The notes: a model not told the origin generated them from the letters alone. A DNA stretch of 64,000 nt from Leptospira sp. (GCA_034439575.1 JAWXAQ010000008.1:128001-192000); one strand, 5' to 3'. Counted from the stretch's first letter, positions 20,699 to 24,684 are shown. A program made the numbers and translations.

Positions 20699-21328
20699 TT
20701 AAACTTTCACTTTCTCTAAAATAAACTTTCGAATTTCATTGATTCCCTTCCCAGAATTTGTAGAGGTAAAAAACAAGGGAAAGGGAAATCCTAATTCATT
20801 CATTACACTTTCCATATCTTTTTGGATGATATTTCTTTCTTTTTGATTTAGTTTATCTACTTTTGTACGAATCACAACAGGTGTAATTTTTTTTTGTAAA
20901 CAAGTTTCAATCATTTGCATTTCCTCTTCTGGAAAAGGACGTTGCGCATCACATAGAATAAATAGATATTTTAATCTGGAAGCTTTGTTTAGAAATTGAT
21001 CAAGTAAACTCATCATTTCTTTGTGTTCTTTATATGAAGCCTTAGAATAACCAAATCCTGGTAAGTCGATAAGACTAAATCCAGCTTTAGTGCCAAAAAT
21101 ATTGATCAATTTTGTTTTACCCGGAGTTTTAGAAACTTTTGCTAATCCTCTTTGATTTGTAATAGAGTTTAGCAAGGATGATTTTCCAGAATTGGAGCGA
21201 CCTACAAATCCAATTAACAATTCATCCGGTAATTTATCTTCTTCCAATTCGTCTGCAATGGATGTTAGAAAGTAGGTATTTGGGAAATGGATTTCCTCGT
21301 GATATGGATTGCCTTTTGATTGATTCAT
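20699..21328 (-). CDS. yihA: Ribosome biogenesis GTPase YihA/YsxC (EngB)
   Basis: GRSNSGKSSLLN, SKTPGKT, DLPGFGY, TKVDK. Confidence 0.93.
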   Translation of the reverse strand: MNQSKGNPYHEEIHFPNTYFLTSIADELEEDKLPDELLIGFVGRSNSGKSSLLNSITNQRGLAKVSKTPGKTKLINIFGTKAGFSLIDLPGFGYSKASYKEHKEMMSLLDQFLNKASRLKYLFILCDAQRPFPEEEMQMIETCLQKKITPVVIRTKVDKLNQKERNIIQKDMESVMNELGFPFPLFFTSTNSGKGINEIRKFILEKVKV

Positions 21329-21331
21329 TTT

Positions 21332-22680
21332 TTATCTTTTCGGATAATTTGGGAGAGATGGATCAAACATAGAAAATAGGATTTGAATTGGTAGGTTTTT
21401 TTCATATACAACGGGAATATACCTCCTAAAAATTTCTGGGATCTGTTTTTCTCGGTAAATTTCCGAAATTTCTTTTTTGCCGTAAGGGAAATTTATCTTT
21501 TCACCCGGTTTCGCTGGCCTTATTTCCCATTCGTTATTTATGTTTTCAATTTCAATATGATTTTCATTCCAATTAACGGAGATTTTGTGGTCAATTTTAT
21601 TGATAATGGGTGCTAAAAGTAATTTTGATTCTTTGGAAAGGAGATGGATATCTCCTTCAAGAATTTTTAAAATTATAACTGATTTTGTTTCTACATTTGC
21701 TTTGGATGAAGACTGGCGTAAAAATTCTAAAAATTGTGAACGATACAAAGGGGGATGTCCAAGTAAGGATAGATAAAAATCTAACAATTGTTTTTGACTC
21801 GAAGGATCTAAAGAATCCCAAGTTTGATTCGGAATGCGAAAATAATATGGAGATTTGGTTTTTGGAATCTGAGTTTCAAAAGGATTCATAAACTCACTTA
21901 CATTTTGGTTTTCTACAGATATAACATTCGTTTGAATCTCAAATCTTTGATCAAATTTAGCTTCTAAATTTTCTGATTCCCAATGATGAAAATTCCAATA
22001 GAATCTATAAAAGTTCATCTTTTCCTTCTTGAGAATTGGTGTGATTTGTTTTCGGATTCGATTTCTTTTGAATGTTATATCATCATTCGATTCATCTTCG
22101 AAGATGGGAAAAAAATCAGAAATCTTTTCATATAACAAATTTAATTCTGGATCCGGAAGAAATACCAGAGGCAAAAAACGATCCTTTGTTAAAGGAGGTA
22201 AGGTGTTAAATGCTCCTTTCCCTGCACCTCTTGTTATGTGAAGTAATACAGATTCACAATAGTCTTGCGTATGATGTCCTGTAAAATAAAATCCATTTTT
22301 TTGACGGATGATTTTATTTAATTCGTGGTAACGAAACAATCGTCCCGTTTCTTCTAGCCCTCTGCCTATTTTTTTTGCGAGACTCGGAATCGTTTTTTTT
22401 TTATCAATGAATTGGGGAAAAATTTCCTTAAGAAAGAATCAATCTCAAATTCCTGTTTGGCGTTGTCTCGAATCGAGTGGTTGAGATGGAAAATTTTAGG
22501 AAGTGGGATAGAATAAGTTTGAAACAAGTATTGAAAAAAAAGTAAACAAATGTTTGAATCTTTTCCCCCTGAATAAGATAATACAGAGTTTTGTGTAAAC
22601 GATTGCGATAAAACAGACTCTCGTCCTATGCGATTGATCCAATTTTCAAGTGTGGTTTTTAAGTCTTCTGAAAGATTCAA
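21332..22680 (-). CDS. tilS: tRNA(Ile)-lysidine synthetase TilS, split by a -1 frameshift (ORFs 22366-22680 and 21332-22339)
   Basis: PP-loop SYSGGKDS and HLNHSIR in the first ORF; GHHTQD..E..L..RG and DESN...RNRIR in the second. Adding one A in the tract at 22393-22402 gives IKKKTIPSLAKKIGRGLEETGRLFRY and a continuous ~449-aa protein. Confidence 0.85.
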
Positions 22681-24602
22681 AGTTTTCTAACGGCTACCAT
22701 TGTAATGTCATCATGCTGTTCTTTACTTTTCATAAAAGTTTTTATTTCAGCATATATATTTTCCAAAAGGAACTTGGGCTCCCTAGAAATAGAGGATATA
22801 AATTTTTCTTTTAGCGCAATGTCGCCAAACTGCTCTTCTTTTTCATTATAGGCTTCCGTCACACCATCGGTAAACATAAGGATTGTATCGTTTTTGTTTA
22901 AAGTTACATTTTCTTCGTTTTTATAGGGAGAAATATCAGCTGTGATTCCGAGTATCACTCCACCAGTTTCAATTTCTTCTAGAATGTTTTGTTTGGCTCG
23001 GTAAATATAAAAATTTCCGTGACCAGCACCTGAAACTATGATTTGATTTGTATCTAAACTCCACCTAAGTAGAATTAGACTCATAAATCGTGGTGTCAAA
23101 GCATCTTTATAACTTGTATGCAAATAACTATTAATATCATTGATAATTTCCCAAGGAGAATCTTTAACTCGCACTAATGAATGTAATATGGTTCGCACTG
23201 TCGCCATGACAAGTCCAGCCGCAACTCCTTTACCACTCACATCCCCAATGCATAAAAAAAGTTCCTTATTATTAGGTGACAAAATATAATCATAATAATC
23301 ACCCCCGATCCCACGAGCAGGCATCATAAACCCACCAAACATTAGATATCTAGTTTCAGGAATTTTTCTAGGGAGAAGGGTAGATTGGATTTCTTTCGCA
23401 ATTTCGATTTCTTTTTCCAACCTTTCCTTTTTAGAGAGATTTTCATAAAGAGTGGCATTTTCCATAGTGATCTGAGCAAGAGAAACAAATGCATTGAGTG
23501 CTTCGATTTCATCTTGCGGAAATCTTGAATCAGGCTTCGCAAGTACAAAAATAAAATCTGCATTATTTTCTAAACTTACAGGTAATATAACAATTTCTTT
23601 TCCAATCACGCCCAATGTTTCAAATATTGGATACTCTTTAGGATCAATGGTGAACGACTCTTTGGCATTTAACAAATGAAAGAGGGTCGCAACATTTACC
23701 ATGCTCGTTTCTGTTGAGATTTGAAAATTATCTAAATCACGAAGTAGTTTGAAGACTTTGACTGTCATTACAGTTTTTGGTTTTTCGATAAGACAGGCTA
23801 CATTTGATTCTACAATTCCGGATAAAGTAAGCAAAATCATACGTATCATTTCATCATGATTATCAAGGTATAATTTGCTGAGAGTCAGAGCGGCTGTATG
23901 TAAACTTTGAAAGTTTTTTGATTGGTTTTGAGATCTAGAATATAATAACGAATTTCGTAAAGATACGGCAAATTGGCCGACGACTAATTGCAATATTTCT
24001 TGATCTTCAATATAATCAGAATAATCTTCGTCATCATAATCAACAGTTAACATACCTACTGCGGTATTTGCATACAAAATCGGAATGATGAGTTGTGATT
24101 TTGTGCCAGTGAGGTCTGAGTAAAATTTATAAAATGGATGTGACTGTTCTGATAAACAATAAAACTTTGATTCGCGTTTAGCCATACTTTCGACTAAGAC
24201 ACCGAAACTAAGATCGTAATCAATATGGATTCTTTTGATAGCTCTCTGTAAACTTTTTTGACGAGCGGAATAATATGCGAGGCGAATATCACCTAATTCT
24301 AAATTGGCGATAAAGATCGCGATTTTTTCTCTTTTTAATCTGTCTTGAATTAATTCTGTGAATCGAAAAAGTAAATCTTCGAGCCCCATTGATGAATTGA
24401 ATAAGGACAAACAATCCAATAAAAATTCGGTTTTCTCTTCCGAACTCAAAACAGTTTTGCCCATACGGGGAATTTTACGTTTTTCTAATATCCATTCTTT
24501 ATCACAGGTTTTGCAATAGAAACGCCCTTGCCTGGTAATTCCGTCGGGCATTTGCGGTTCCTGGCATAACAAACAAAGAGTTTCTTCTATTGGGTTAATC
24601 AT
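22677..24602 (-). CDS. Zn-ribbon + two GAF(-like) domains + SpoIIE/PP2C phosphatase
   Basis: CLLC...CKTC, GAF segments, AKEIQSTLLP, GGDYYD, GDVSGKG, FTDGVTEA, HDDITMV. ATG at 24602 preferred. Confidence 0.88.
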   Translation of the reverse strand: MINPIEETLCLLCQEPQMPDGITRQGRFYCKTCDKEWILEKRKIPRMGKTVLSSEEKTEFLLDCLSLFNSSMGLEDLLFRFTELIQDRLKREKIAIFIANLELGDIRLAYYSARQKSLQRAIKRIHIDYDLSFGVLVESMAKRESKFYCLSEQSHPFYKFYSDLTGTKSQLIIPILYANTAVGMLTVDYDDEDYSDYIEDQEILQLVVGQFAVSLRNSLLYSRSQNQSKNFQSLHTAALTLSKLYLDNHDEMIRMILLTLSGIVESNVACLIEKPKTVMTVKVFKLLRDLDNFQISTETSMVNVATLFHLLNAKESFTIDPKEYPIFETLGVIGKEIVILPVSLENNADFIFVLAKPDSRFPQDEIEALNAFVSLAQITMENATLYENLSKKERLEKEIEIAKEIQSTLLPRKIPETRYLMFGGFMMPARGIGGDYYDYILSPNNKELFLCIGDVSGKGVAAGLVMATVRTILHSLVRVKDSPWEIINDINSYLHTSYKDALTPRFMSLILLRWSLDTNQIIVSGAGHGNFYIYRAKQNILEEIETGGVILGITADISPYKNEENVTLNKNDTILMFTDGVTEAYNEKEEQFGDIALKEKFISSISREPKFLLENIYAEIKTFMKSKEQHDDITMVAVRKL

Positions 24603-24668
24603 GGAACCTATGCAAATTAGGTCGGAAATTTTCAAATCTACAAGTATTTTACTAAACCCAAAGAAAAC

Positions 24669-24684
24669 TGGCACATTTCATGCT
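24669..24684 (+). promoter_or_regulatory. Candidate sigma-54 (-24/-12) promoter
   Basis: TGGCAC-ATTTC-ATGCT with exact GG-N10-GC spacing, oriented toward the enhancer-binding-protein gene. Confidence 0.55.

Follow-up and report, generated by a model that had tools for sequence, protein, structure and literature searches.

Conserved recoding of nonmobile chromosomal genes is rare in bacteria, the classic examples being prfB and dnaX. In Escherichia coli dnaX, frameshifting is stimulated by an upstream Shine–Dalgarno (SD)-like element and a downstream stem-loop. According to Atkins et al. 2016 (PMC5009743), runs of 9 A/T induce efficient slippage by bacterial RNA polymerase (RNAP), and in Thermus thermophilus dnaX, a chromosomal housekeeping gene with a run of nine A/T, RNAP adds As to the transcripts (1 or more extra), standard translation of which gives a trans-frame product without RNA structure. 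The same review links the shift-proneness of the E. coli dnaX heptamer, A_AAA_AAG, to the sole tRNA-Lys(UUU), and describes “corrective” or “compensatory” frameshifting, in which the needed protein comes from infrequent restoration of the frame, the unshifted product having no use; the corrective cases covered there are mostly mitochondrial or recent “savior” indels. Poly(A)-frameshifted genes rescued by slippage have also been described in Buchnera aphidicola and Blochmannia (Tamas et al. 2008, as cited in PMC5009743 and PMC10540940). The words Leptospira, lysidine, tilS, and mesJ do not occur in the first two-thirds of PMC5009743, and we found no report of a frameshift, slippage, or pseudogene for Leptospira tilS in the openly accessible main-text literature.

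Here, we analyze tilS, the gene for tRNA-Ile2 lysidine synthetase, in a 64,000-nt stretch of Leptospira sp. DNA (GCA_034439575.1, JAWXAQ010000008.1:128001–192000; hereafter, the window). Comparative analysis of the family points to a conserved recoding site in the tilS of Leptospiraceae, with a mechanism that is probably transcriptional. Set beside the described systems, at least as far as the cited sources cover them, tilS resembles Thermus dnaX in being a chromosomal housekeeping gene with an A run of at least 9, but Thermus uses both tau and gamma and encodes the full-length protein in the genomic frame, whereas for tilS, where we infer slippage from the sequence, the slipped product alone would be functional. 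Like the E. coli dnaX site, it combines a slippery Lys heptamer and a frame change in the −1 direction with a single tRNA-Lys(UUU); unlike that site, it has a run longer than a heptamer, and our searches brought up neither a conserved structure nor a conserved element upstream. As in Buchnera and Blochmannia, an essential or useful gene lies off-frame at a long A run, is still under selection, and would be rescued by polymerase infidelity. Those bacteria, however, are obligate endosymbionts whose AT-rich genomes are degenerating and contain many such genes, most of them lineage specific, whereas the present case concerns a single gene of free-living and host-associated Leptospiraceae with genomes of 3.4 to 6.5 Mb, and the site is kept across 9 genera. 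A useless unshifted product, with the needed protein supplied by a little frame restoration, would be common to tilS and the corrective class; the tilS case, in contrast to that class, is ancient, family-wide, and bacterial. A sequence-only reading of the locus had cited slippage rescue as reported for an endosymbiont tilS, but we could trace no such report, only the general poly(A) cases of Buchnera and Blochmannia.

The tilS locus is encoded in two reading frames

The tilS locus occupies positions 21332–22680 of the window on the minus strand and is divided between 2 frames. The zero-frame open reading frame (ORF; 22366–22680, minus strand) encodes 104 aa, starts with TTG at 22680, carries the PP-loop ATP-binding motif SGGxDS (as SYSGGKDS), and ends TTG ATA AAA AAA AAA CGA TTC CGA GTC TCG CAA AAA AAA TAG, with the stop codon at 22366–22368. 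This end contains an A10 run (22393–22402, minus strand; ATA AAA AAA AAA, then CGA), which is our candidate for the conserved slippage site, and an A8 run (22369–22376, minus strand) directly 5′ of the stop codon. In the −1 frame, no stop intervenes between 22438 and the stop codon at 21332–21334 (21332–22438, minus strand; translation FFLKEIFPQFIDKKKTIPSLAKKIGRGLEETGRLFRY...), and this stretch comprises the remainder of the PP-loop domain, together with the substrate-binding region and the TilS C-terminal domain. The sequence open in both frames measures 73 nt (22366–22438, minus strand), so the frame change must fall within this interval, which includes both A runs. Adding one A within the A10 run yields I K K K T I P S L A K K I G R G L E E T G R, leading into the E..R..RY motif of TilS (at LEETGRLFRY in the −1 frame), and the predicted full-length TilS has ~449 aa, 96 from the zero frame and 353 from the −1 frame. 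The last 8 zero-frame residues past the A10 run (RFRVSQKK) form an unconserved tail. On recheck, the zero-frame sequence, the positions of both runs, and the −1 entry into the E..R..RY frame proved to be exactly as first read.

The 2 halves match complementary parts of the TilS profiles. In PF01171 (182 positions), the N-terminal half covers positions 3–48 (E 3.9e-4) and the C-terminal half positions 69–182 (55.3 bits, cut-off 27); in TIGR02432 (189 positions), they cover 3–48 and 66–189, respectively. Neither half alone reaches the TIGR02432 cut-off of 93.6 (25.7 and 62.6), as expected of a gene read in 2 frames. The C-terminal half also matches TIGR02433, the TilS C-terminal domain, and its score of 25.8 bits exceeds the cut-off of 20.2. 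The frame change thus cuts the PP-loop domain internally, and the first impression that both halves are otherwise intact holds: neither half of the window gene contains further stops or shifts.

The tilS locus is the sole PF01171 (PP-loop ATPase) match of the genome, and a TtcA-like paralogue was not found with this profile. In 3 of the 5 sister-family genomes searched, a clear second PF01171 locus, shorter (262–278 aa), scores over the cut-off. On either side of tilS lie genes of the same (minus) strand, a GAF plus SpoIIE/PP2C-type phosphatase gene upstream (22677–24674) and an EngB/YihA-like GTPase gene downstream (20699–21328). In the tetranucleotide TTGA (22677–22680), the start codon of tilS (TTG) and the stop codon of the phosphatase gene (TGA) overlap, the GTPase gene starts 3 nt past the tilS stop, and the 3 genes appear translationally coupled.

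The A10 run is recovered in other assemblies

An apparent frameshift at a homopolymer may reflect an assembly or sequencing error, in which case the real run would be A11 and tilS would be continuous. Homopolymers are error-prone, and the source genome (37 contigs, 4.1 Mb, 35.7% GC) is a draft, metagenome-assembled from a microbial mat according to the run listing. We aligned contigs from other public metagenome runs over positions 21800–22900; these are consensus contigs, which confirm the majority run length and leave minority lengths invisible. Against an error, 2 of them repeat both A10 and A8 gap-free: a 31-kb contig from run X4, with 0 differences, and a contig from run X7 (lake water, another year), which has 6 substitutions and represents a different strain from another habitat. 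Five of the X7 substitutions fall within tilS, 2 synonymous and 3 nonsynonymous, too few to be informative. A contig from run X9 spans A8 and stops 23 nt beyond A10, for which it is given no weight.

The composition of the genome likewise speaks against an error. It contains 20 A/T runs of at least 10, and the position of one of them exactly in the 73-nt two-frame interval of tilS is beyond chance; no other run of this length breaks a frame. A scan for frame changes at A/T runs of at least 8 returned 29 candidates, most of which resemble ordinary gene boundaries. Among the other runs of 10, those at C20:20788–20797, C8:277369–277378, C12:5711–5720, C12:65354–65363, C20:5703–5712, and C30:36547–36556 all lie deep in long frames that they leave unbroken.

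Metagenomic contigs from microbial mat, lake water, and groundwater (runs X4, X7, and X9) contain near-identical DNA of this species, and the run listing names further runs, from metagenomes and wastewater, in which its share is small. The one run with an RNA label, X20, is probably DNA and covers positions 22653–22900, outside both A runs. The organism seems to be a widespread freshwater saprophyte.

The split is conserved across Leptospiraceae

Whether the break recurs in other Leptospira had been proposed as a check on the locus, and the check came out clearly: in a first DNA search, all 24 species of the same genus had a tilS split at the same site, with the C-terminal half always in the −1 frame and a near-invariant junction, GT-A10-TYCC, encoding V K K K | I P K L. 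We then extended the search to 114 Leptospiraceae genomes from 14 genera, 112 of which gave a tilS match with the query used (G095 and G127 gave none); 111 loci were taken in and 110 analyzed, G119 (cut by a contig end) and G128 (weak match) being left out. The gene is split in 78 of the 110 species and continuous in 32. Split genes occur in 9 of the 14 genera: g1 (39 of 40 species), g14 (2/2), g15 (1/1), g16 (1/4), g18 (1/1), g20 (1/1), g21 (10/22), g22 (18/23), and g23 (5/6), with none among the 10 species of g11, g12, g13, g17, and g19 together. In the sister family, tilS is continuous in all 5 genomes searched, each from a different genus.

The geometry of the break is uniform. In all 78 split genes, the C-terminal half lies in the −1 frame, so that the gene is one A short, and in none is it one A long. 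The run is A10 in 69 of them, A11 in 8, and A8 in 1, and an uninterrupted A10 or A11 sits at the orthologous Lys-Lys-Lys site in 77/78. The 2 g1 subgroups, with A11+TATTCC and A10+TYCC, are one whole codon apart, and both are one A short. In every split gene, the two-frame-open interval includes the run, and in 32/78 the −1 frame opens only within the run (a preceding T plus AA forming TAA), which confines the shift to the run or to the few codons before the zero-frame stop. The 32 continuous genes comprise 12 with an in-frame A11, 3 with A10 or A9 in another register, 6 with A8 (4 of them, in g21, an interrupted A8-G-AA), and 11 with runs of 3–7.

These comparisons separate the 2 runs of the window gene, which had been taken for redundant slip sites. 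Both do lie in the permissive interval, but the redundancy is not borne out, as A10 alone corresponds by orthology to the conserved run. No counterpart of A8 occurs in relatives, some of which have A6–A7 further 3′, and a shift at A8 would put RFRVSQ in place of the family-conserved I-P-x-L segment (TIPSLA); A8 is species specific and probably not the functional site.

Split and continuous states also follow the phylogeny. On a tree of the C-terminal half, the state changes 9 times, compared with a mean of 28 and a minimum of 23 in 200 label shuffles, which indicates inheritance by clades rather than the scatter expected of errors. Sister species differ cleanly, as in L066 (A10, split) and L072 (A11, continuous), the context of which is otherwise identical, and 12 of the 16 assemblies listed with 5 contigs or fewer carry the split. 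Together with the X4 and X7 contigs, the clade-structured sharing of the split state by 78 species, including these 12 assemblies, leaves the caveat of a homopolymer sequencing error, raised when the locus was first read, with next to no credence.

The only continuous tilS in g1 belongs to L116 (G096), which has no A run at the site (A4) and sits on a very long basal branch (1.68); this gene either retains the ancestral state or has had the segment replaced or rewritten.

The conservation of the A run may be due in part to inheritance rather than to selection for slippage, since 12 continuous genes also keep an uninterrupted A11; an independent-pairs test of split state against a run of at least 10 offered only 6 pairs (median p 0.5) and is underpowered. 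The one-sided −1 direction could reflect a deletion bias of replication. The split arrangement is nevertheless old and stable in Leptospiraceae, with occasional A10/A11 flips between sister species, and these flips suggest that the run leaves both genotypes viable and that TilS output is low. They also show that the run mutates, which is what would be expected if the locus behaved like a contingency locus, replication slippage generating A11 cells that supply the function within a mixed population; consensus contigs would conceal such a minority length. An essential gene, however, cannot be off in most cells, and A10 is the consensus in 3 assemblies of the window species and in 69 species. As the majority genotype, A10 must itself be viable, and we consider DNA-level variation a very improbable account of the split.

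A further alternative is that tilS is a true split gene, with polypeptides of ~100 aa (N-terminal) and ~330 aa (C-terminal) made separately and then assembled. Two open frames are present, and split enzymes are known in general, but 67 of the 78 split genes have no ATG, GTG, or TTG in the C-terminal frame between 90 nt 5′ of the run and the E..R motif, and the first start candidate in the window, TTG at 22339, is already past LEETGR. The cut would also fall within the PP-loop domain, and from the run up to the zero-frame stop conservation is confined to the −1 frame (I-P-x-L...), all of which makes separate synthesis of the halves exceedingly improbable.

Both halves are under selection and TilS is needed

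Pairwise dN/dS among split genes is 0.21 (g1), 0.10 (g21), and 0.13 (g22) for the N-terminal half, values inflated by the untranslated leader taken in with the stop-to-stop slices, and 0.07 (g1), 0.08 (g21), and 0.08 (g22) for the C-terminal half. The underlying dS is ~0.5–1.4; between the window tilS and its nearest relative dS is saturated, and the ratios thus come from pairs within g1, g21, and g22. Judged by these ratios, strong purifying selection is acting on both halves. The segment from the run to the zero-frame stop is conserved as I/V-P-x-L...K-K-G-L-E-E-T-G-R in the −1 frame only, and the zero-frame tails of relatives vary in sequence and span 3–44 codons (median 7).

The tRNA genes of the genome include three tRNA-CAU, a tRNA-Ile2 candidate among them, and one tRNA-Lys(UUU); there is no tRNA-Ile(UAU) among them. 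ATA makes up 23.4% of Ile codons, or 19 per 1,000 codons, in 1,166 long frames, and a PF01171 search of the genome gave no second tilS. With a single tilS, no tRNA-Ile(UAU), and heavy use of ATA, the cell needs TilS.

The possibility that tilS is a pseudogene and that AUA is decoded otherwise has to be weighed against these data. A frameshift midway through the catalytic domain should, formally, inactivate the gene, and pipelines annotate just a C-terminal ORF of 323–335 aa in relatives. A dead gene is, however, hard to reconcile with dN/dS of 0.07–0.21 for the two halves in dozens of species that carry the split, or with a lack of further lesions, of a second tilS, and of tRNA-Ile(UAU) in a genome that uses ATA heavily, and we regard a pseudogene as extremely unlikely. 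The sequence-only reading had preferred programmed slippage or frameshifting to a pseudogene, and the same split at the same run in 78/110 species, together with purifying selection, now bears out that preference.

Candidate routes of frame restoration

Taking the family-wide comparison as a whole, tilS is very probably a functional gene recoded at the A run, by a transcriptional or a ribosomal route; the readings without recoding are improbable even when combined. The DNA is one A short of a continuous frame at an A10 run encoding Lys-Lys-Lys, and full-length TilS would arise only upon restoration of the frame within this run, the unshifted product being a presumably useless fragment of 104 aa. 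That slippage takes place, which machine slips, and how often are all points that we infer, and an A-extended transcript and a −1 ribosomal slip yield the identical predicted protein.

For the main route we lean toward RNAP. RNAP would slip on the T10 template and add one extra A to a fraction of the transcripts, and the A-extended transcripts would then be translated normally into full-length TilS of ~449 aa. Sites of transcriptional slippage are recognized by an A/T run of at least 9, about the length of the RNA–DNA hybrid, by recovery of the frame through an added nucleotide, and by transcripts of mixed run length from uniform DNA; the run is A10 here and A10 or A11 in 77/78 split genes, and one added A restores the frame in all 78. 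That the gene is always one A short fits the A-adding slippage of RNAP as presented in the first two-thirds of PMC5009743. Within the runs, all Lys codons are AAA, compared with 19% AAG among the Lys codons elsewhere in the same genes, and interrupted runs (A8-G-AA) occur in continuous genes only.

Programmed −1 ribosomal frameshifting on A_AAA_AAA in the unedited A10 mRNA would be the main mechanism if the ribosome rather than RNAP were the slipping machine, and several features are in keeping with it. The heptamer A_AAA_AAA keeps to the zero-frame register in every context seen (GTA AAA AAA AAA; TTT AAA AAA AAA ACG), the genome has a single tRNA-Lys(UUU), the direction is −1 in 78/78 split genes, and in 8/78 a possibly slow codon, AUA, follows the Lys codons. 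No conserved stimulator, on the other hand, was detected. RNAalifold predicted 0 consensus pairs for 24 diverse split sequences (−30 to +100 around the run, nested pairs only), and the fold of the window sequence around the run was no better than that of shuffles (z = +0.53). In the 30 nt 5′ of the run, the aligned split sequences share no conserved columns that could serve as an SD-like stimulator, a degenerate element out of alignment being one that would escape this comparison. Moreover, 7 nt would suffice for the ribosome, yet 77/78 genes keep 10 or 11 uninterrupted As, and A_AAA_AAG is used by none of the 78. As the main mechanism, ribosomal frameshifting is thus a serious but somewhat unlikely candidate; alongside RNAP slippage, a −1 slip on A_AAA_AAA, decoded by the single tRNA-Lys(UUU), may play a part or even predominate.

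A more specific proposal is that the poly-A break is a device maintained throughout the family that sets or tunes TilS at a low level, with feedback through AUA in a subset of species. Low TilS would slow AUA decoding beside the Lys run, slower decoding would increase −1 shifting, and more shifting would raise TilS synthesis, a circuit that, if real, would resemble the autoregulation of prfB. AUA directly follows the Lys codons in the zero frame in 8/78 split genes (L007, L114, L118, L042, L048, L050, L100, and L117), and ATA directly precedes the run in the window (22403–22405) and in 3 other split genes. AUA beside the Lys run could act as a hungry codon that feeds back on frameshifting in these genes; it is absent from the majority of split genes, and we hold the proposal of a tuned device to be doubtful.

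Annotation and wider relevance

Databases list C-terminal ORFs of 323–335 aa as TilS in Leptospira sp., L. ognonensis, and L. ilyithenensis, which shows that the break is not annotated as recoding, and split tilS genes are at risk of being called pseudogenes. If the recoding proposed here is correct, an essential decoding enzyme would depend on slippage in ~70% of the species of one family, which spans both environmental saprophytes and the clade whose genomes are larger and host-associated. The pairs of A10 and A11 genes form a natural, phylogenetically replicated series in which transcriptional slippage could be told apart from ribosomal slippage, and they bear on how AT-rich genomes cope with long coding homopolymers. 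In 2 species, a T10 run lies just 5′ of the A run, as T10-AT-A10 in L003 (G004) and T10-CT-A8 in L117 (G097), placing 2 neighboring slippage-prone homopolymers in a single coding region.
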